Assembly (NCBI GenBank): GCA_963815585.1
Contig: CAWFHJ010000020.1
Span: 88,673-152,672 of the forward strand
Direction: 5' to 3'
DNA from: an uncultured Actinomycetota bacterium
Lineage (GTDB): Bacteria > Actinomycetota > Actinomycetes > Propionibacteriales > Nocardioidaceae
Length of the DNA: 64,000 bases
Part shown: positions 5,583-57,355 of the stretch, in pieces
Numbering within the stretch: the stretch's first letter is position 1
Layout: each line of letters starts with the position of its first letter
The notes under the pieces: generated by a model
Told to the model about the DNA's origin: nothing
Database searches by the model: none
Seen by the model: the letters and a program-made list of their open reading frames with translations, nothing else
Position numbers and translations under genes: made by a program

Positions 5583-6820
5583 CAGAACTCCCGGTCCAGC
5601 AGCAGCACCGGCACCGGCTGACCCGGCGCCACCGTGGTCTGCTGCTCGGCCAGCACCACCAGGGCGTTGGCCTCGGAGAGGTCGCCGACCAGGTGTGATC
5701 CGTGGCCGCCGACCGGGGTGACCTTCGCGCCCTCGCGGCCGACCTCGTAGCGGGCGCGGACGAACTGCCGCTTGCCCTGGAACGACTGCAGCGGTGCGGT
5801 CGTGACCGCCCGCATCATCGGCCGCGACAGCACGCTGCGGCCCATCATCTTGCGGAGTGCCGGCAGCACGAACACCTCGAAGGAGACGTACGACGACACC
5901 GGGTTGCCGGGCAGCGTGAAGATCGGGGTGCTGTCCTCGCCGACGAAGCCGAAGCCCTGCGGCTTGCCGGGCTGCATCGCGACCTCCTCGAACTGCACGG
6001 TGCCCTGCTCCTGAAGCACTTCCTTGACCACGTCGTACGCGCCCTTGCTGACGCCGCCGCTGGTCACCACCACGTCGGCTCGCACCAGCTGGTCGCTCAA
6101 CGCCTCGGCGAAGCCCTCACGGTCGTCGCGGACGATGCCCACGCGGTAGGCGATGGCACCGGCAGCGCGCGCGGCTGCGGCCAGCATGTAGGAGTTGCCG
6201 TCGTAGATCGAGTCGCGGCCGAGCTTCTCCCCCGGCTCGCGGAGCTCGTCGCCGGTCGACATCACCACCACCCGCGGACGCGGGCGGGAGGCCACCCGGG
6301 AGGTGCCGACGGAGGCGAGCAACCCGATCTGCCGGGGACCGATCAGGTCACCCTCGCTGACCAGCCGGTCGCCCCGCTTGACGTCCTCGCCTGCGCGCCG
6401 GATGTGCTGGCCCATCTCGGGCGCCTGCTCGATGAGCACCTTGGAGGTGCCGCCGTCGGTCCACTCGACCGGCACGACCGCGTCGCAGCCCTGCGGGATC
6501 GGGGCGCCGGTCATGATCCGCACCGCGGTGCCCGGCGACATCGCCAGGACCGAGGAGGAGCCGGCCGCGATCTCCCCCACCACCGGCAGGTGCACGGGGC
6601 GCTGCTCGCTGGCCTCGGCCACGTCGCGGTGCACCACGGCGTAGCCGTCCATGCCGGAGTTGTCGAACGACGGCAGCGGCATCGTCGCCAGCACGTCCTC
6701 GGCGATCGGCAGCCCCATCACCTCCAGCAGCGGCTGGTCGTACGCCGGCAGGGTGTCGATGGAGTCGAGGATCCGCTTGAGGTGTTCGTCGACAGAGGTC
6801 AGCGGAGTCTCGGAAGGCAT
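5582..6820 (-). CDS. moeA: Gephyrin-like molybdotransferase MoeA/Glp
   Basis: [52 protein letters not shown]. Confidence 0.95.
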
Positions 6821-6845
6821 GCTCCGAGCCTACGACCCGGCAGGG

Positions 6846-8225
6846 TCACTGCTGCCGCAGCACCGTGCCGGACGCGATCCGGCCGTGGCCGTCCGGCGCG
6901 TCGAGGGTGACCTCGCCGACCACGGAGACGCCCTCACCGAAGGTCCAGTCGCCGTGCACCACCAGCGACTCCGCCTCCTTCAGGGACGGGGCGCCGGAGG
7001 GGAAGCGCTTGTCGAACTCACCGACCAGCGCGTAGGGCTTGCCCAGCTCGACGTACGGCGCGTGCTCCGGTCCCATGTCCATCACGAAGTCGCTGCCGAG
7101 GTCGTAGACGTCGGAGCGGATCAGCAGCAGCTGGCTGGTGTTCTTCACCGGCACGAACCGGTCGCGCGTGACCTCGATCAGCTGCGCGCCCTCGAACACC
7201 TCGATCGCGGCACCCATGGCGGTCTCGATCTGGATCACCTCGGGGCTTCGCGGGTCGCTCGGGTCAGTGTGCTTCTCGTTGCGGATCAGGGGCAGCCCGA
7301 GGATGCCGTCGCGCCGGTCGAGCTCGGTGCGCATCGCCTCGAGGTCGAACCAGATGTTGTTGGTGGAGGAGTACTTGTGCCGGCTCAGGTCGGTCAGCGC
7401 AGCCTGGTCCTCGGGCAGCGTCTGGGCGGTCTCGCGCAGCACGATCCGGCCGTCGTTGACGCGCGTGGCGAAGTGTCCGCCCTTCTTGTCGTTGGCGTCG
7501 CGGCGCACGGCCTCGATCGCGAACGGTGCACCGGACTGGGCGAACCAGCCGGCCACCCGGGCATCAGGCACGGCGCCGAGGTTGTCGGCGTTGGCGACGA
7601 ACACCCGCCGGAACCCGGCGTCGATCAGCTTGTCGAGGAGTCCGGTGCCCCGCAACGCGGTGTAGAGGTCACCGTGTCCGGGCGGACACCACTCGAGCGC
7701 CGGGTCGATCGTCCAGCTCACCGGCTCGAGGTTGTCGGCCCGGATCTTCGGCTCCTTGTTCTGCAGGAACTCCAGCGGCAGTCCCTCGACGGCGAGGTCC
7801 TGGTAGCGACCCAACGCCGCGAGCGTGTCGGCCGAGGTGCGGAACGAGTTCATGAAGATCAGCGGCAGCGGGGCGTCGTACTCGCGGCGGAGGTGGAGCA
7901 CCTGCCGGGCGATGATGTCGAGGAACGACAGGCCGCGGCGTACGCACAGCAGGGACTTCGCGCGGTCCAGACCCATCGAGGTGCCGAGACCCCCGTTGAG
8001 CTTGATCACCGCGGTGGCCCGGATCGCGTCGGCCGCCGTCTCGTCGGAGACCTCGACGTCGGCCAGTGCGTCCACCTCGATCGGCTCGATCGTGGACTCC
8101 GGGATCATCCCGGTCTCGCCGTGCTGGATCAATCGGTAGTAGTGCGCGAAGACGTCGATCGCCGTCTCGTCCACACCGGCGTCCGCCATCTTCTTGCGGC
8201 ACATCGCCAGGCCCTTGTCCTTCAT
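6846..8225 (-). CDS. UTP--glucose-1-phosphate uridylyltransferase, eukaryote-like (UDPGP) fold
   Basis: KLNGGLGTSMG...KS, WCPPGHGD, KKGGH, ETAMGAAI, RFVPVK; start ATG 8225. Confidence 0.92.
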   Translation of the reverse strand: MKDKGLAMCRKKMADAGVDETAIDVFAHYYRLIQHGETGMIPESTIEPIEVDALADVEVSDETAADAIRATAVIKLNGGLGTSMGLDRAKSLLCVRRGLSFLDIIARQVLHLRREYDAPLPLIFMNSFRTSADTLAALGRYQDLAVEGLPLEFLQNKEPKIRADNLEPVSWTIDPALEWCPPGHGDLYTALRGTGLLDKLIDAGFRRVFVANADNLGAVPDARVAGWFAQSGAPFAIEAVRRDANDKKGGHFATRVNDGRIVLRETAQTLPEDQAALTDLSRHKYSSTNNIWFDLEAMRTELDRRDGILGLPLIRNEKHTDPSDPRSPEVIQIETAMGAAIEVFEGAQLIEVTRDRFVPVKNTSQLLLIRSDVYDLGSDFVMDMGPEHAPYVELGKPYALVGEFDKRFPSGAPSLKEAESLVVHGDWTFGEGVSVVGEVTLDAPDGHGRIASGTVLRQQ

Positions 8226-8248
8226 GACTCCGATCGTAGGCTTGCCGG

Positions 8249-8845
8249 GTGAGCGTGAACATGTCGGCCGCCAAGCTCGCGCTCCGCGACCAGCTCGTGA
8301 CGGCGCGCGGCCGGGTCCCGGTGCCGGTCCTCTCGGAGCAGGCGCGGTCGGTTGCGGACCACCTCCTGGCCGCTCCGGAGGTACGCCGGGCAGCCACTGT
8401 GGCGGCGTACGTCTCGGTCGGGAGGGAGCCCGGCACGGGTCCTCTGCTGGCCGCTCTCGAGGCCGCCGGCAAGCGGGTGATCCTGCCGCTGCTGCAGCCC
8501 GACAACGACCTCGACTGGGCGCTCTACCGCGGCCCCGACTCCCTGGTGCCGGCCCGCCGCGGCCTGCTGGAGCCCGTCGGAACGCCCCTCGGCGCGGACG
8601 CCGTCGGCACCGCCGACGTGGTGATCGTGCCGGGCCTCGCAGTCGACCGCACCGGCCTGCGCCTCGGCCGCGGAGGCGGCTCCTACGACCGCGCACTCGG
8701 ACGGGTGCCGGTCGGCACCTTCACCTGCGTCGTGCTGCACGCCAGCGAGGTGCGCGACGAAGTCCCCGCCGACCCCCACGACCGCCAGGTGACCGCCGTC
8801 GTCACCGAGGACGGCGTGGTGAGGTTCCGGCGGACGATGAGCTAG
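8249..8845 (+). CDS. 5-formyltetrahydrofolate cyclo-ligase
   Basis: VPGLAVDRTGLRLGRGGGSYDR motif. Confidence 0.93.
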   Translation: MSVNMSAAKLALRDQLVTARGRVPVPVLSEQARSVADHLLAAPEVRRAATVAAYVSVGREPGTGPLLAALEAAGKRVILPLLQPDNDLDWALYRGPDSLVPARRGLLEPVGTPLGADAVGTADVVIVPGLAVDRTGLRLGRGGGSYDRALGRVPVGTFTCVVLHASEVRDEVPADPHDRQVTAVVTEDGVVRFRRTMS

Positions 8846-8870
8846 CGGGGGTGGAGGGCAGGACCCGGGC

Positions 8871-8958
8871 GATTTACCACGTTCACGTGGTAACTCGCCG
8901 CTTCGCACGGGAGATCTGGCTGGCGAAGCGGAGAACTACCACGTGAACGTGGTAAATC
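8871..8958. repeat. 88-bp nested palindrome with 22-bp perfect inverted arms
   Basis: GATTTACCACGTTCACGTGGTA (8871-8892) pairs with TACCACGTGAACGTGGTAAATC (8937-8958); inner CCGCTTCGC/GCGAAGCGG; lies between convergent genes. Confidence 0.9.
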
Positions 8959-8965
8959 CAGAGAC

Positions 8966-11549
8966 TCACCCACCCTCCCCCGGCTCCAGCACCAGCGTGT
9001 CCTCGGTCGCCTTGCGCACGGCGTCGGGCGTGGAGGGCCAGGCAGTGGTCTCGCCGCGCAGCCACAGGTCGACCTGGTCGACGTAGTGGTCGCCGAAGGC
9101 GTGGCCGGACTGCCCGGCCAGGTTGACCCAGCGGCTGCGGTCCAGGTTGCCGACGTCGACCACCATCCGCATCGCGGGCGCGTTGGTGACGGCATAGCCC
9201 ACCCGCGGGTCCCAGGCCGTGGCGTCGACGGCGCCCGTGCCGCCGGGCGACCCGTGGCCGTGACGGTCGAACAGCGCGCCGACCAGCCAGTTGCCGTTGC
9301 TGAACGTCGGGCGGTCCAGCCGCAGCTGGTGCAGGTGGCCCCAGGTCCAGCGCTTCGGGTAGCGCGACTGCAGGCGCACCAGCTCGTCGCGGGCCTCCCG
9401 CATCGCCTTGCCGAGGATCACGTCGCGGTTCTCCACCTCGCCGCTGGTCTCCACGTCGTCCCACCACGGGCTGTCCGGCTGCTGCAGCAGCTGGGCCATC
9501 ACCGCCATCCAGCGCGAGCTGCCGTCGGGCCACAGCGACTCCCGGAGCTGGTCGTGGAAGGTCAGCTCGAGGACCTTGCGCCAGACCGCGTTGAAGTACG
9601 CCGCCGATGCGGAGTCCGCGGGCTGCGCGTAGTCCCAGCCGGACAGGAGCTGCTGGCCGCTCGCGTAGTACGCCGAGGGCAGCAGCACGTCGAGCAGGTA
9701 GGGCACCAGCACCGGGCCCATCGGGTTGCGGGTGTCTGCCTGGATCGCGGTCATGTCCGCGACCCGCAGCTTCGACCCGTCCGCGACCCGCTGCCGGAGC
9801 AGCCGGTGGATCCGGTCGCTGCGGTAGCCGTAGTCCCACCAGTCCGCGAGCCGGTAGGGGTAGTCCGGACCGGTCACTGCCTGGTTGGCCGCGACGATCA
9901 CCCCGGACGCCGGGTTGAGCTCGGTCGGCAGTGCCGTGGCCGGCACCACCTTGCCGGACCAGTCCTGCGACTTCTTCCAGCCCGCGGCCGGGTAGTCGCC
10001 GGTGTGGCCCACCTTGCGGATCGGCACCGCACCCGTGGCCTGGTAGCCGATGTTGCCGAGGTTGTCGGCGTAGACGAGGCTCGTCGCCGGTGCGCTCAGG
10101 TCGGCCGCTGCGGACCGGAAGCTCGCCCAGTCGCCGGCCCGGTTCATCGCCAGCAGCGCGTCGGCCGAGCGGCCCGGTGTCGCGGCCGCCCACTGGACGG
10201 CGACCGCGTAGCCGTTGCCACGGGCGGGCGCGTCAGGTCGGGGCCGGAGCGTTGGCGCCGACGCTGGACAGCTCGCGGGAGACGTCGGAGACCAGCGGCC
10301 CGTGCCGGGTCGACCGGACCGTGATCAGCCTGGATTCGCCGCCGGCGATCCGGACCCTCTCGTCGCGCTCCTGCAGCGGGACCTGCTGGTCGTCGTAGAG
10401 GTAGTCCTTCCCGCTCACCTTCTCCAGGTAGAGGTCCACGGTGTCGGCCTGGAGGTTGGTCATCCCCCACGCGATGTCGTCGTTGTGGCCCATCGCGATG
10501 CCGGGGAAGCCGGCCCAGCTGAAGCCGGAGACGTCGTAGGGGCAGGACTCGTCGACGTTCCGGCAGTGCAGGCCCATCTGGTAGAGCGCGCCGGGCTGGC
10601 CGACGTCGAGGTGCGGGTCGTTGGCGAGCAGCGGCTTGCCGGTGGTGGTCAGCGCCCCCGACACCACCCAGCCGTTGCTGCCGAGCCCGTCGCCGCTGCC
10701 CACCGCCGTCGGCATCGCCCGCGTCGCCCTGGCCGCCCGGTCCAGGGGTCCGAGCATCGCCCGGGTCAGTCGCGGGGTGGTGGCGCGAGGCGCGGCTCGC
10801 GGGGCCTGCTCGGCGTCCACGACCGGTGCGCGCTCGTCGTACGGGTACGACGGGTAGAGCTCGGCGATCTGCGCAGGATCGCGGTCGACCGAGAGCCGGG
10901 CGCGCGCGATCTCGTCGTCGAGGTTGCCGGCGAGGTTCCACGCCATCGACTTCAGCCAGGCCAGGGAGTCGACCGGCGTCCACGGCTCCGGTCGGTAGTC
11001 GACGTCGACGGCGAGCACGGTGTACTCGAGCGACGCCCCCGCGCCGGAGTGCGAGGAGAGCCAGGCGTTGACGCCGTCGCTGAACGAGTCGAGCGACTCG
11101 CGGGCCTCGGCCGACAGCAGCAGGTACTCCTTCTCGGCCGTGCGGTACCAGCCCAGCGTCCGGGCAGTCATGTCGCTCTCGAGGGTGCGTGCGCCGAACA
11201 GCTCGCTGAGTCGCCCGGCGCTCAGGTGCCGCCGGTAGTCCATCTGCCAGAACCGGTCCTGCGCCTGCACGAAGCCCTGCGCGTAGAACAGGTCGTGGCT
11301 GGTGCCGGCGTAGATCTGCGGCACCCCGTGCGCGCCGCGCAGCACCTGCACGGTGTCGTCGAGCCCCTTGAGCTGCAGGTCACCGCTGGTCTGCGGCAGC
11401 GGGCGACGGACCACGATCGTGCCCGCGATCAGGGCGAGCACCAGGAGCAGGACCACGCCGGCGACTCCGTAGACGGTGTAGCGCGCCGGCGTCGGCCAGT
11501 CCCGGAACCGGTCGCGGTCGGGAGCAGCAGACGGGGTCACGCGGAGCAT
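8966..11549 (-). pseudogene. Penicillin acylase family (Ntn hydrolase) gene split by a frameshift near 10235-10245
   Basis: N-half: AQDRFWQMDYRR, GSNGWVV (catalytic Ser), LLANDPHL; stops at 10233. The C-half (DAPARGNGYAVAVQW...NLAGQSGH) runs in another frame to 8966. Span 2584 bp = 3n+1. Confidence 0.85.
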
Positions 11550-52383: not shown

Positions 52384-53214
52384 TCAGAACTGCTCGAGGT
52401 CGTCCCGGCTGACGGTGTCGAAGCTCGGGTCGGGCACCGGCACAGGCAGCTGCTTCTTGCGCAGCTGGGCCTCGGAGTGGGCGCCGCAGCCGTGACCGAG
52501 GGCGACCACGCGGCCGTCGTCGTTGGCGTACTCGTTGGCGCAGACCCCGAAGGTCAGGGACAGCGGTCCAGCCAGCCGGACCAGGAAGCCGCAGGCGGAG
52601 CAGGCGTGCGGCGCCTGCTGGGAGATCGCCGAGTCGGGACCCTGCTCGCCGTCGTACCACCGGTCGGCGGCGAGCTCGCGGCCCTCCAGGGAGAGCACCC
52701 GGGCCCGGCCGAGGCCGAGCTCGTCGCCGACCTCGCGGATGGCGCGGCCGTCGACGGCCTCGCCCAGGATGTCGTCGGGGGCGTCGTCGCCCGGGTCGCC
52801 GGAGAGGTACGCCGGCGACAGCCGCTCGTCGTCCTCGTCGGTCGGCAGGATGTCGCCCGGTGACAGGTCGCCGGGCTGGATGCGCTCGCGGTAGGGCACC
52901 CACGGGGGCGCGGTGATCGAGCCCTCGCCCGGCAGCAGCACGATCTCGTCGATCGTCACCTCGTCGTGGCCCTCGGCGTGCGCGACGGTGACCGCCCAGC
53001 GCCAGCCGGGGTAGCCGGACTGCGTGCAGCCGAACCACTGCGTGACGGCGTGCTCGCCCTCGCTCACGAAGCCCTGCGGCTCGCCGACCACGTCGGCGCC
53101 CACCTGCTCCACGAGCGCGGCACGCGCTTCGTCGACCGCGCGGGTCAGAATGGGGTCAGCGCCCGCGAGCGAAGGGCCCCCGGACGTGCCTGGGTGGTCG
53201 GCAGTGCTGATCAC
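52384..53214 (-). CDS. DUF3027 family protein
   Basis: GYPGWRWAVTV, LLPG...APPWVPY..R..PGDL, CxxC, FGVCANE, GCGAHSE. Confidence 0.9.
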   Translation of the reverse strand: MISTADHPGTSGGPSLAGADPILTRAVDEARAALVEQVGADVVGEPQGFVSEGEHAVTQWFGCTQSGYPGWRWAVTVAHAEGHDEVTIDEIVLLPGEGSITAPPWVPYRERIQPGDLSPGDILPTDEDDERLSPAYLSGDPGDDAPDDILGEAVDGRAIREVGDELGLGRARVLSLEGRELAADRWYDGEQGPDSAISQQAPHACSACGFLVRLAGPLSLTFGVCANEYANDDGRVVALGHGCGAHSEAQLRKKQLPVPVPDPSFDTVSRDDLEQF

Positions 53215-53311
53215 GGCGGGAAGTCTACGGGAGGCGCTCACCGTTTCCGACGGCTCACCGCCCCGGCGGGTGGCGACGGCGTGGCGCGGGTGGACTTGGC
53301 AGGATGGTGCC

Positions 53312-54700
53312 GTGGATCCCGAGACCGCCCCGCACCCCGACCAGGGGGAGCAGGACACGTCCGGCCCGACCGACGAGACCGGCGCCGGGCGTGGCCGTCG
53401 CGCCCTGCGCGCCACCGGGCGCGGCGTCGCGGCGACCGGCCGCGCCAGCAAGCGGGCAGCCACCGGCACGTTCCAGCGGGCCCGCCGCGCGTCCCACGCG
53501 CAGGGGGCCGGCGGTTCCGGCCTCTCGCGGCTGATCGAGCTCCACGCGTTCAACGCGGCGGGCGACGCGGCGGTCGCGATCTCGCTGGCCGGCACCATCT
53601 TCTTCGCCGATCCCGGCAGCGCCCGAGGTCCGGTGGCCCTGTTCCTGGCTCTCACCATGCTTCCGTTCGCGGTCGTCGCACCGCTGATCGGCCCGTTCCT
53701 CGACCGTTTCTCCCACGGCCGCCGCTGGGCGATCGGCGGCACGTTCGCCGTCCGCAGCCTGTGCTGCCTGGTCGCCGCCGACGCGATCGCCTCCGACTCG
53801 GTGCTGTTGTACCCCGCCGTGCTCGGCTGTCTGGTCTCCTCCAAGGCGTACGGCGTCGCGCGTGCCGCGACCGTGCCCCGCCTGATGCCGGCCGACCTGA
53901 GCCTGGTCAAGGCGAACAGCCGGATCTCGCTGGCCGGCCTGGTCGGCGCCGCCATCTCCGGTCCGCTGGCAGCCGGGGCGGCGTACTTCGGGGGGCAGTG
54001 GTCGCTGCGCTACGCGTTCCTGGTGTTCGCGGCCGGCACCATCCTCGCGATCCTGCTGCCGGCCGCCTCCGACGCCAGCGCCGGCGAGCAGCAGGTCACG
54101 CTGACCCACGCCAAGCAGCGGTTCCAGCTGCCCGCCACGATCGTGTTCGCGCTGCGTTGCAACGCCGGGCTGCGGATGCTGTCCGGCTTCCTGACCATGT
54201 ACATGGCCTTCCTGCTGACCCAGAATCCCCTGCCCGGCTTCGAGAACAAGCGCACCCTGCTGCTCGTGCTGGTGATCGGCGCCGCGGGTCTGGGCAACGC
54301 CGTCGGCATCGGGCTCGGCAGCCTGCTGCGCCGGGTCAACCCGGTGGGCACCGTCGTCTTCGTGCTGCTCGCCGACGCCGCGATGGCGCTCGTGTGCGCG
54401 CTGTTCTACGGACTGCTGACCGCGATGCTGCTCGGCCTCACCGTCGGCGTCGCGCAGGCGCTCGGCAAGGTCTCGCTCGACGCGCTGATCCAGCGCGACA
54501 TCCCCGAGCAGGTCCGCACGTCCGGCTTCGCCCGCTCCGAGACGCTGCTCCAGCTGTCCTGGGTGCTCGGCGGCTTCATCGGGATCGGGCTGCCGCTGAT
54601 CCCCGAGGTGGGTCTGGGCGTGCTGGCGGCGCTGATGGTCGCCTGGACAGCGTTCGTCCTCCTCAACCGTCCGGGACGGGCGCCGCGCGTCGCGACCTGA
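53312..54700 (+). CDS. MFS transporter (Rv0876c-like)
   Basis: SGLSRLIELHA, TMLPFAVVAPLIGP.LDR, SKAYGV, ARSET.LQL.WV.GG. Confidence 0.88.
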   Translation: MDPETAPHPDQGEQDTSGPTDETGAGRGRRALRATGRGVAATGRASKRAATGTFQRARRASHAQGAGGSGLSRLIELHAFNAAGDAAVAISLAGTIFFADPGSARGPVALFLALTMLPFAVVAPLIGPFLDRFSHGRRWAIGGTFAVRSLCCLVAADAIASDSVLLYPAVLGCLVSSKAYGVARAATVPRLMPADLSLVKANSRISLAGLVGAAISGPLAAGAAYFGGQWSLRYAFLVFAAGTILAILLPAASDASAGEQQVTLTHAKQRFQLPATIVFALRCNAGLRMLSGFLTMYMAFLLTQNPLPGFENKRTLLLVLVIGAAGLGNAVGIGLGSLLRRVNPVGTVVFVLLADAAMALVCALFYGLLTAMLLGLTVGVAQALGKVSLDALIQRDIPEQVRTSGFARSETLLQLSWVLGGFIGIGLPLIPEVGLGVLAALMVAWTAFVLLNRPGRAPRVAT

Positions 54701-54721
54701 GCCGGTCGCGCGCTGCCGCCC

Positions 54722-55117
54722 TCAGAGCTCCAGCTCGTCGGCCAGCCCACGCAGGAGCTTCGCGGTCGGCTTCGCGGTGCGTGCCTCGGGGCGTCGTCCG
54801 CCGCGGTAGGTCTGCTCGACACCCTCGAGGAGCTTGATCAGGTCCTCGACGATCCCGACCATGTCCTCGGGGTTCTTGCGCTGGGCGGCGCGCTGGTTGG
54901 CGGTCACCGAGGCAGGCGCCTCGAGCACCCGCACCTGCAGTGCCTGGTCGCCGCGGCGGCCCTGGGCGATGCCGAACTCGACCCGGGAGCCGGGCTTGAG
55001 CGACGGGGTGCCGGTCGGCAGCGCGGAGGCGTTGACGTAGACGTCCTCGCCCTCCTCACGGGAGAGGAAGCCGAAGCCCTTCTCCGCGTCGTACCACTTG
55101 ACCTTTCCGGTGGGCAC
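54722..55117 (-). CDS. Cold-shock domain protein (CspB-like, with C-terminal extension)
   Basis: MPTGKVKWYDAEKGFGFL; start GTG 55117. Confidence 0.93.
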   Translation of the reverse strand: MPTGKVKWYDAEKGFGFLSREEGEDVYVNASALPTGTPSLKPGSRVEFGIAQGRRGDQALQVRVLEAPASVTANQRAAQRKNPEDMVGIVEDLIKLLEGVEQTYRGGRRPEARTAKPTAKLLRGLADELEL

Positions 55118-55202
55118 AGCTGACCTCTTCGCGCTCGGGTGGGTGCCCCGGACCCGGGGCGGCGCACCATCGTACGTCGAGGCGCAGCGCGACCACACAC
55201 CC

Positions 55203-56624
55203 TTATCGGTAGCGCTCCGGGTCGTCCAGCAGCTCGTTCATGGCACCGGAACGGAAGCCGAGCGGATCGACGTCCGCCTCGCCGAAACCGGCATCGCGCA
55301 CGGCGGCCAGCACAGCGTCGTCGACGCGGTCGACGAGGCCGCGGTCGACCTCGATCCGGGCCGCGTCACCGAGGTCGCGGACGCGCACGTTGCGAGCCTC
55401 CGGCAGGTGCTGACGTACGGCGGCCTCGGCGCGCTCGACCCGCGCCAGCCGGTGCGGCGTGATCTCCACGCCGTAGGCGATCCGGGAGCTCAGGCAGGCC
55501 GCGGCCGGCTTGTCCCAGGTCGGCAGGTCCCACGCCAGCGAGGCCGCCCGGACCTGGTCCTTGGTGAACCCCGCGTCGAGCAGTGGCGTCACCGCCCCGC
55601 GGTCCGCGGCCGCCTGGATGCCCGGCCGGAAGCCGGCCCGGGCGTCGTCGGCGTTGGTGCCGGTGGCGACCGCGTCATAGCCGTGCTCGCGCGCCAGCGG
55701 CGCGAGCACGTCGAGCAGCTCGGACTTGCAGAACGCGCACCGGTCTCCGGCGTTCGCGACGTAGCCCTCGCGCGCCAGCTCGTCGGTCTCCGGCGTGAAC
55801 ACCGCGACGCCCAGATCATGCGCGAACGCCAGTGCCGGTTCGCGCTCCGACAGCGGCAGCGATCCGGAGTACGCGGTGGCGGCAGCGACGTTGGCCGGGC
55901 CGAGGGTGCGCGCCGCCGCGGCGAGCAGGAACGCGCTGTCCGTGCCGCCGGAGAACGCGACGAGCAACCTGGGGTGCCGGCGCAGCTCGGTCTCCAGCGC
56001 GGCCAGCCGGGTCTCCAGCAGGTGGCCCTCGAGCCACGCGGGAAACTCCGTCAGGTCCTCCAGTACGACGTGCGTGCCCGCAGCACGCAGCTCCGCCTCC
56101 GTGCACCCCCCGGTCAGCACCGAGACGCTCGTGGTCCCGGCGGCCAGCGCGCCCTCGACGTCGTGCACGTGGTCGCCGACGTAGATCTGGGCGCCCTGCG
56201 CGCGCAGCACGTCGCCCTTGCCCGGACCCCAGACCCAGCCCTCGACGTGGTCGACGTCGAGCCCGAGGTGGTCGACGTGCAGCTGGGCGTTGGGCGTGTG
56301 CTTGCCGGTCACCAGCAGCACCCGGCCGTGCTCGCGTCGTACGGCGGCGATCGCGTCGTGGGCGCCCGGGAAAGCCGGCGTCGGCAGCACCGCGGTGCCG
56401 GGGTAGATCGCGCGGAACCGGTCCCCCGCCGGGCCGACCGCGTCCTCGGCGAGGTGGTCGCGCAGCAGGTGGTCGAGCGGCGGCCCGAGGCGGGCGGTCA
56501 TCGACTCGGTCGGGAACGTGATGCCGAGCTCCGCGCCGAGCACCTCGAGCGTCGCCGCGAACCCGGCACGGGTGTCGATCAGGGTCATGTCGAGGTCGAA
56601 CCCGACCACCAGCTGATCTGCCAC
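55203..56624 (-). CDS. HAD hydrolase fused to a LarE-like PP-loop sulfur transferase
   Basis: N-terminal FDLDMTL, VTGK, YVGDHVHD; C-terminal AFSGGTDS, RCAFCK, GTNADD, RPG, DKPAAACLSSR, RVR, ARIEV; single 473-aa ORF. Confidence 0.88.
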   Translation of the reverse strand: MADQLVVGFDLDMTLIDTRAGFAATLEVLGAELGITFPTESMTARLGPPLDHLLRDHLAEDAVGPAGDRFRAIYPGTAVLPTPAFPGAHDAIAAVRREHGRVLLVTGKHTPNAQLHVDHLGLDVDHVEGWVWGPGKGDVLRAQGAQIYVGDHVHDVEGALAAGTTSVSVLTGGCTEAELRAAGTHVVLEDLTEFPAWLEGHLLETRLAALETELRRHPRLLVAFSGGTDSAFLLAAAARTLGPANVAAATAYSGSLPLSEREPALAFAHDLGVAVFTPETDELAREGYVANAGDRCAFCKSELLDVLAPLAREHGYDAVATGTNADDARAGFRPGIQAAADRGAVTPLLDAGFTKDQVRAASLAWDLPTWDKPAAACLSSRIAYGVEITPHRLARVERAEAAVRQHLPEARNVRVRDLGDAARIEVDRGLVDRVDDAVLAAVRDAGFGEADVDPLGFRSGAMNELLDDPERYR

Positions 56625-56670
56625 GCCTCCAGCGTACGAAGGCTGCGCGACGACTGCGACAGTGGTCCGC

Positions 56671-57132
56671 ATGTCCGACACCTGGTGGCACGTCGCGCTC
56701 GCGGTGCTGGGCGCGCTGGTGCTGGTCTGGCTGCTGTTCGTGCTCGCGCTCATCGTGGTGAGACCGAAGGACGGCCTGCTCCGCGAGAGCCTGCGGATCC
56801 TGCCGGACCTGGTGCGGATGCTGACCCGGCTCGCGCGCGACCCCGACCTTCCGCGCGGGGTGCGGGTGCGGCTGGCGCTGCTGGTCGGCTACCTCGCGCT
56901 GCCGATCGACCTGGTGCCGGACTTCGTGCCGGTGCTCGGGTACGCCGACGACGCGATCGTGGTGGTCCTCGTGCTCCGCTCCGTCGTACGTCGGGTCGGC
57001 GTGGAGCCGTTGCGCGCGCACTGGCCGGGCACCGGCGACGGCTTCGCCACTCTGTGCCGGCTGGCCGGACTCAGCCCTGGTGCACCGGCAGCGACCGAGG
57101 AGCGACCGGGGTCGACACCACCAGCGAGCTGA
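56671..57132 (+). CDS. DUF1232 (YkvA) family protein
   Basis: YLALPIDLVPDFVPVLGYADD. Confidence 0.92.
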   Translation: MSDTWWHVALAVLGALVLVWLLFVLALIVVRPKDGLLRESLRILPDLVRMLTRLARDPDLPRGVRVRLALLVGYLALPIDLVPDFVPVLGYADDAIVVVLVLRSVVRRVGVEPLRAHWPGTGDGFATLCRLAGLSPGAPAATEERPGSTPPAS

Positions 57133-57235
57133 TCGTCTGGCCGTGCATCAGGAACTTGTCGAGGGTGTCCTCGAGCTCCTGGATCGTCGCCGCGTGCACC
57201 GTGACCAGGAAGCCGTCCTCGCCGGTGATCCGGAT
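57071..57235 (-). pseudogene. C-terminal remnant of an Lrp/AsnC family regulator
   Basis: RITGEDGFLVTVHAATIQELEDTLDKFLMHGQTISSLVVSTPVAPRSLP; the N-terminal HTH is absent. Confidence 0.7.
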
Positions 57236-57263
57236 CGCGCCGGACGCATCGGACCGGCGTGCC

Positions 57264-57355
57264 AGATAGTCCGTGACGAAAAGCGCTTGGACCGGGCCCC
57301 CGAGGGCGCTCAACGTCACGGACTATCTCCAGATCGCGCCAAACGTCACGGACTA
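57264..57355. repeat. 15-bp inverted repeat plus a third direct copy of the right arm
   Basis: AGATAGTCCGTGACG (57264-57278) / CGTCACGGACTATCT (57314-57328); AACGTCACGGACTA repeats at 57312 and 57342. Confidence 0.88.

Follow-up and report, generated by a model that had tools for sequence, protein, structure and literature searches.

What does a phosphatase domain do on the same polypeptide as a sulfur insertase of nickel-pincer cofactor synthesis, and do the two halves serve one pathway? This question is raised by a gene at positions 55203..56624 (reverse strand) of a 64,000-nucleotide stretch of DNA (the window) from an uncultured bacterium of the family Nocardioidaceae (assembly GCA_963815585.1, contig CAWFHJ010000020.1), which encodes, in 473 amino acids plus a stop codon, a haloacid dehalogenase (HAD)-type phosphatase followed by a LarE domain. 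A previous reading of the DNA from its letters alone (the sequence-only reading) had proposed that the fusion couples dephosphorylation to thiolation, for cofactor salvage or proofreading, or that it belongs to a different thio-nucleotide pathway. Our analysis disfavoured both proposals. HAD-LarE is a genuine single fused gene, and we consider it probable, with appreciable room for doubt, that the two domains of its product function essentially on their own, the HAD domain being a passenger.

The coding sequence is one uninterrupted open reading frame, free of TAA and TGA within the frame, with a GTG start at 56624. Although a longer frame from an ATG at 56753 is possible, the GTG was preferred because it matches the lengths of the homologues, all of which have 473 amino acids at 80–94% identity to the fusion and 471–481 amino acids otherwise. 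The ATG would also make the gene overlap head to head with the divergent gene of a DUF1232 (YkvA-like) membrane protein (56662-57132, forward strand), whose start lies 38 nt from the GTG. Pfam, TIGR00268 and the motifs agreed with the sequence-only reading that this single frame holds a complete HAD and a complete LarE domain, and its statement that the junction lacks a start codon held as well, as no in-frame ATG, GTG or TTG occurs between residues 181 and 219. The two halves are equal in composition (GC 0.74; GC at third codon positions 0.92–0.95). At the junction (55980..56054, reverse strand; residues 191-215), DSSP on an AlphaFold2 model predicted one continuous helix that leads from the C-terminal end of the HAD domain into the first helix of LarE, with a predicted local distance difference test score (pLDDT) of ~95–97, and this helix is highly conserved among the fused proteins. 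The full-length model had a pLDDT of 89 and a predicted template-modelling score (pTM) of 0.83. When the full model was searched against the PDB with Foldseek, only single-domain LarE structures were returned, with no two-domain precedent. A scan of 54500-57300 for promoters and terminators detected nothing.

The fusion is no assembly artefact, since the same architecture recurs across many independent genomes. Among 121 genomes of the GTDB family, 44 carried the full in-frame fusion, 22 a complete LarE alone and 16 the HAD alone, while the remainder comprised 12 with fragments or frameshifted copies and 27 with nothing. At the class level, the fusion was found in ~54 of 301 genomes and in at least 19 families, including Nocardioides, Marmoricola, Kribbella, Embleya and Pseudofrankia as well as Sporichthyaceae, Jiangellaceae, Actinopolymorphaceae and Streptosporangiales. 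A protein search further retrieved hundreds of clusters of 471–481 amino acids with both halves from NCBI, JGI, ENA and Logan, although several sequences in the library of 50%-identity representatives were frameshifted translations, which limited its use. The idea that a missed stop or frameshift made two genes look like one draws on the proneness of high-GC genomes to frameshift errors, on the visibly frameshifted database representatives and on a few split relatives (G038 and G079). It is so improbable as to be negligible, because the same in-frame arrangement recurs in genomes of the genus (three of the four sampled), family and class, and in 77 loci fetched from independent assemblies, complete chromosomes among them. 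The survey of the architecture that the sequence-only reading had called for thus revealed a conserved fusion and all but excluded the missed stop. In the two split relatives (G038:C6:1456837-1458259 and G079:C3:84607-86042), the fusion is split over two or three frames, and one of the two copies has internal stops; these copies are either decaying genes or sequencing errors. No description of a HAD-LarE architecture was found in the literature on LarE with HAD or as a fusion; the architecture is thus undescribed in the literature searched, yet widespread and already annotated automatically. The public names of the 476-amino-acid homologues ('ATP-dependent sacrificial sulfur transferase LarE', 'Haloacid dehalogenase domain protein hydrolase' and 'gph 1') each describe one half only.

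The LarE half (55206..56018, reverse strand; residues ~203–473) is a PP-loop ATP pyrophosphatase-type sulfur insertase domain, which matched the TIGR00268 equivalog with 265 bits (NCBIfam cut-off, 150) over model positions 3–259 of 259. Structure alignments were obtained with L. plantarum LarE (5udq, E 1e-29) and with the Methanococcus maripaludis-type enzyme (8cnz, E 3e-11), and the LarE half of the model gave Foldseek TM scores of ~0.8 with LarE structures. The PP-loop SGGTDS (55935..55952; S225–S230), the CAFC motif with C296 and C299 (55728..55739) and C377 in WDKPAAACLSSR (55494..55496), all on the reverse strand, are invariant in 35 fused homologues, and the three cysteines are the predicted first, second and third ligands of a [4Fe-4S] cluster. 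C296 and C299 align with CynC of 8cnz and C377, part of an AACLSSR motif, with its third cysteine; their counterparts in Thermotoga LarE are C92 and C95, and C172 in WDKPAMACLCSRF (Thermotoga residues taken from primer sequences). The CxxC pair and third cysteine noted in the sequence-only reading were thereby confirmed in alignment with the ligands of both enzymes. The [4Fe-4S] cluster of Thermotoga LarE is bound by C92, C95 and C172 and makes the enzyme catalytic and non-sacrificial (PMC9283937). S380, R414 and R416, likewise invariant in the 35 fused homologues, align with S180, R212 and R214 of L. plantarum LarE, the proposed binders of the substrate 5'-phosphate (PMC9283937).

These features suggest that the LarE half belongs to the CxxC...C, [4Fe-4S]-dependent, non-sacrificial type of LarE, with cluster binding predicted from the conserved cysteines. 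Like the enzymes from Thermotoga maritima and of the Methanococcus type (8cnz), the fusion has SGGxDS, CxxC with a distal cysteine and the phosphate-binding Ser/Arg/Arg set, and co-occurs in genomes with LarB and LarC; unlike those single-domain proteins of ~270 amino acids, it adds an N-terminal HAD domain of ~200 amino acids through the continuous helix. L. plantarum LarE (5udq) shares ~32% identity, the fold and the substrate-binding residues with the fusion. The L. plantarum enzyme consumes its single Cys176, whereas the fusion has an alanine at this position, a cysteine (C377) at the next residue and the CxxC pair in addition, which makes the NCBI label 'sacrificial' probably a misnomer for the HAD-LarE family. 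As in Thermotoga LarE, sulfur insertion by this half would be catalytic and non-sacrificial: AMP would be displaced by sulfur from a non-core sulfide of a [4Fe-4S] cluster bound by C296, C299 and C377, and the P2TMN so formed would go on to LarC, which inserts nickel.

The genome does encode a canonical cofactor pathway, as indicated by a larB-larC pair on another contig (C10:560000-576000, about 5762-9139 of that stretch), whose genes overlap by one base at shared position 7594. LarB scored 272 bits (cut-off, 175) and LarC 198 bits (cut-off, 90), with 428 bits for Ni_insertion. The fused gene is the sole LarE above cut-off in the genome. The sequence-only reading had reported no larA, larB or larC; this stands for the 64-kb window, where none was found, and fails as a gap in the pathway, of which LarA alone is absent. 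No match to Lar_N (PF09861) or NF033504 was found in the genome, which is estimated to be 92.8% complete, while a genome of the same genus (G008) has a LarA. The larB-larC pair has a prephenate dehydratase gene upstream, and downstream of it lie genes for a GDT1/UPF0016-family divalent-cation transporter and an arginine deiminase; being encoded beside a nickel-insertion gene, the transporter might be a metal supplier.

The lack of LarA is common in the family. LarC was present in 77 of the 121 genomes, of which ~31 had any LarA-like match and 46 (~60%) had no LarA-like gene, like the window genome; true LarA, defined by a score above the 460-bit cut-off, was found in five family genomes. The combination of LarBCE with no LarA has been known before, and users of the cofactor other than LarA have recently been reported, namely an aldo-keto reductase family and ornithine cyclodeaminases with a dinucleotide variant (PMC13524815). 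Eight aldo-keto reductases are listed for the window genome, and for the two that were compared with the PDB no entry named as the nickel-pincer aldo-keto reductase NphT appeared near the top. On another contig (C9:41626-49555), a stretch of 8 kb contains three aldo-keto reductase genes; the best PDB matches of this trio were ordinary NADPH-dependent enzymes (DepB and AKR13B2), with no sign of a nickel-pincer type.

The HAD half (56031..56624, reverse strand; residues 1 to ~198) is a C1-cap phosphatase domain of a COG0546/PtkA-like subfamily. Pfam HAD_2 (39.2 bits against a cut-off of 23.8), HAD, Hydrolase and Hydrolase_like all scored above their gathering thresholds within residues 7–195. 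The four HAD motifs are present (D10-x-D12-x-T14, T106, K136 and G150-D151-x3-D155). Motif I, GFDLDMTLID (56574..56603), with nucleophile D10 and general acid/base D12, and motif IV, GDHVHD (56160..56177), with D151 and D155, both on the reverse strand, are invariant in the 35 fused and in 8 HAD-only proteins. D10, D12, T14, K108, K136, G150, D151 and D155 are invariant in the fused proteins down to 56% identity, and the catalytic residues are also kept in fused members at 45% identity, which argues that the domain is not decaying; judged by its sequence, it is a catalytically intact phosphatase domain. The sequence-only reading had set a canonical larBCE pathway combined with an inactive HAD domain against its own proposal: the pathway largely does explain the LarE half, but the conserved residues do not support an inactive phosphatase.

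As regards the type of phosphatase, the HAD half reached none of the named NCBIfam HAD equivalogs. Scores were 42.5–46.8 bits for the phosphoglycolate phosphatase TIGR01449 (cut-off, 180) and 18–22 bits for PpaX (NF009804; cut-off, 218), and the BT2127-type 'inorganic diphosphatase' NF053653 was below cut-off. Against the PDB, the family profile matched 6f2x (the core of Mycobacterium tuberculosis PtkA), 3mc1, 2ah5 and 3sd7 at E values of 1e-17 to 1e-19, and phosphoglycolate phosphatases and BT2127-type pyrophosphatases more weakly. The fusion shares the four motifs and the cap signature GPPL...YRxxY with the COG0546-type C1-cap HADs (PtkA 6f2x, SP0104 2ah5, 3mc1, 3sd7, phosphoglycolate phosphatases, PpaX and BT2127), at profile E values of 1e-19 to 1e-9. 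Orthology to PtkA was considered and rejected: it was the top PDB profile match, yet its score was no better than those of generic COG0546 structures. PtkA, moreover, has an N-terminal disordered domain that the fusion HAD lacks.

Whether the two halves depend on each other can be judged from genomes that carry only one of them. LarC was present in 42 of 44 fused and 20 of 22 LarE-only genomes of the family, whereas among HAD-only genomes it occurred in 1 of 16 in the family and 0 of 23 in the class. Across 81 LarE-linked HADs, 55 positions reach a conservation of 90% or more, and every one of them was also kept in 8 HAD-only orthologues from LarC-less genomes; this comparison revealed no fusion-specific signature in the HAD. 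Since HAD-only orthologues keep the conserved residues where LarC is missing, the HAD substrate is unlikely to be specific to the nickel-pincer pathway. LarA-like genes accompany fused (15/44) and unfused (13/22) LarE alike. True LarA occurs in LarE-only genomes (G017 and G072) and in three fused genomes (G008, G060 and G099), each of which has the fused gene as its only LarE. Taken together, these patterns point to a fused LarE that makes the ordinary cofactor and to a HAD substrate that is present in cells without the pincer pathway. The HAD half would thus act on a phospho-compound found in cells generally, and not on a nickel-pincer intermediate, candidates being pyrophosphate or a small phosphoester.

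The chromosomal slot of the gene offers a view of how the two halves came together and apart. Directly downstream of the fusion, after a gap of 85 nt, lies a cold-shock-domain gene, csp (54722..55117, reverse strand; Pfam CSD). The order DUF3027-MFS-csp-X was kept in 16 of 16 relatives examined, and four states occur in the slot upstream of csp, X: the fusion, a lone LarE, a lone HAD or a translationally coupled pair of genes. In searches up to E 1, LarE-only and HAD-only loci showed no trace of the half that they lack, indicating that losses or gains were clean. The standalone HAD and LarE genes in this slot and the coupled pair are orthologous to the fusion (44–70% identity) and share its DUF3027-MFS-csp synteny, differing from it in being separate or single genes with no joint polypeptide. 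In the coupled pair, found in one family (f21), each half has a gene of its own, and the stop of HAD overlaps the start of LarE (GTGA) exactly at the fusion point, an arrangement in which a single-base change would fuse or split the two. The states vary inside single genera (g23, g53, g50 and g14). In a tree of the LarE domain, LarE-only rows were scattered among fused ones, with 12 changes for 14 rows at weak support; the well-supported branches require only 2–4 changes. An ancestral HAD-LarE-csp string with the GTGA overlap probably gave rise to the fusion, which has persisted in many actinomycete lineages, with repeated loss of either half. Streptomyces-like genomes have the HAD near csp and no LarE; in one such locus, csp and an MFS gene stand beside the HAD. 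In the window, the DUF3027-MFS-csp string, which is conserved across Nocardioidaceae, spans 52384-55117, and its csp product has a C-terminal extension of ~60 amino acids.

Several observations weigh against halves that work independently. Genomes that have both the orthologous HAD and LarE almost always carry them fused or translationally coupled, a pattern seen in at least 19 families, and the junction is modelled (pTM 0.83) as a rigid, highly conserved helix. The HAD orthologue has mostly been lost entirely from LarE-only genomes, which is unexpected for a housekeeping enzyme. The test for the same specificity in LarE-linked and HAD-only proteins is also of limited power, as some of the shared residues are common to the whole subfamily: GPPL and YRxxY are found in PtkA, 3mc1 and 2ah5 too. 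Coupling over such long times hints at some benefit, for example local removal of pyrophosphate (PPi) after adenylation. The tethered HAD could, in that case, be a pyrophosphatase (or a phosphatase of another LarE by-product) that clears the PPi from two adenylations; its removal would pull a product-inhibited LarE reaction, and a free HAD would do the same job non-specifically. LarE, as a PP-loop ATP pyrophosphatase, releases PPi (PMC9283937). HAD-type inorganic pyrophosphatases are found in the same broad subfamily, with profile matches to BT2127-type structures such as 3qu2 at E ~1e-9, and weak NCBIfam matches were obtained to NF053653 (14 of 18 members) and PpaX (17 of 18). A general substrate of this kind would fit the HADs in larC-less genomes, their dispensability in LarE-only genomes and the near-obligate coupling when both are present. 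The PpaX and BT2127 scores are nevertheless far under their cut-offs and lower than those of the phosphoglycolate-phosphatase models, and many LarE-only lineages manage without the HAD. We regard such a role as unlikely, albeit as the chief rival to independent halves.

The coupling favoured by the sequence-only reading would have the HAD dephosphorylate a nucleotide of the pathway itself (P2CMN, PCTMN, P2TMN or NPN), for proofreading or for salvage; a variant of this idea is that it supplies a dephosphorylated cofactor to a LarA-independent enzyme. In its favour are the fusion or operon linkage with LarE in many families, the 46 LarC-positive family genomes and the window genome without a LarA-like gene, and the recent non-LarA users and dinucleotide variant (PMC13524815), which make variants of the cofactor plausible. 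This role is improbable because orthologues with the same conserved residues occur in HAD-only genomes, 38 of 39 of which lack LarC; conversely, LarE-only genomes, some of them in genera with the fusion, keep larC and sometimes a true LarA. The LarE half also retains its phosphate-binding residues and is the sole LarE beside a canonical LarA, a user of the phosphorylated cofactor, and LarA-like genes are no preserve of the fused state. Slightly more doubtful still is the specific version in which the HAD strips the 5'-phosphate, yielding a nucleoside-form cofactor for a LarA-independent enzyme, or destroys mis-made intermediates; if true, it would be the first phosphatase-coupled PP-loop sulfur insertase. 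A LarE-like half serving some other thio-nucleotide or thiolation pathway, with no link to the nickel-pincer cofactor, would be in keeping with a gene that stands apart from larB and larC and a genome in which no LarA was found. We consider it very improbable, given an equivalog score well over the cut-off, the conserved substrate-binding Ser/Arg/Arg, LarC in nearly all fused genomes and the lack of any other LarE to serve larB-larC, in addition to the three canonical-LarA genomes that rely on the fused LarE. A LarE and a HAD that work essentially independently on one polypeptide thus remain our preferred reading.

Since public data already contain many copies of the fusion and the evidence speaks against a new pathway, the fusion is of modest importance. 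The fused, coupled, LarE-only and HAD-only states in close relatives are natural experiments on whether a PP-loop sulfur insertase benefits from a phosphatase, and the analysis flags the database label 'sacrificial sulfur transferase' as probably wrong for these Fe-S-type enzymes. More interesting than the fusion is which enzyme uses the cofactor in a genome without LarA. About 60% of the LarC-positive genomes of the family, including that of the window, have the cofactor pathway without a LarA-like user, and the hunt for new nickel-pincer enzymes in aerobic soil actinomycetes stays open.

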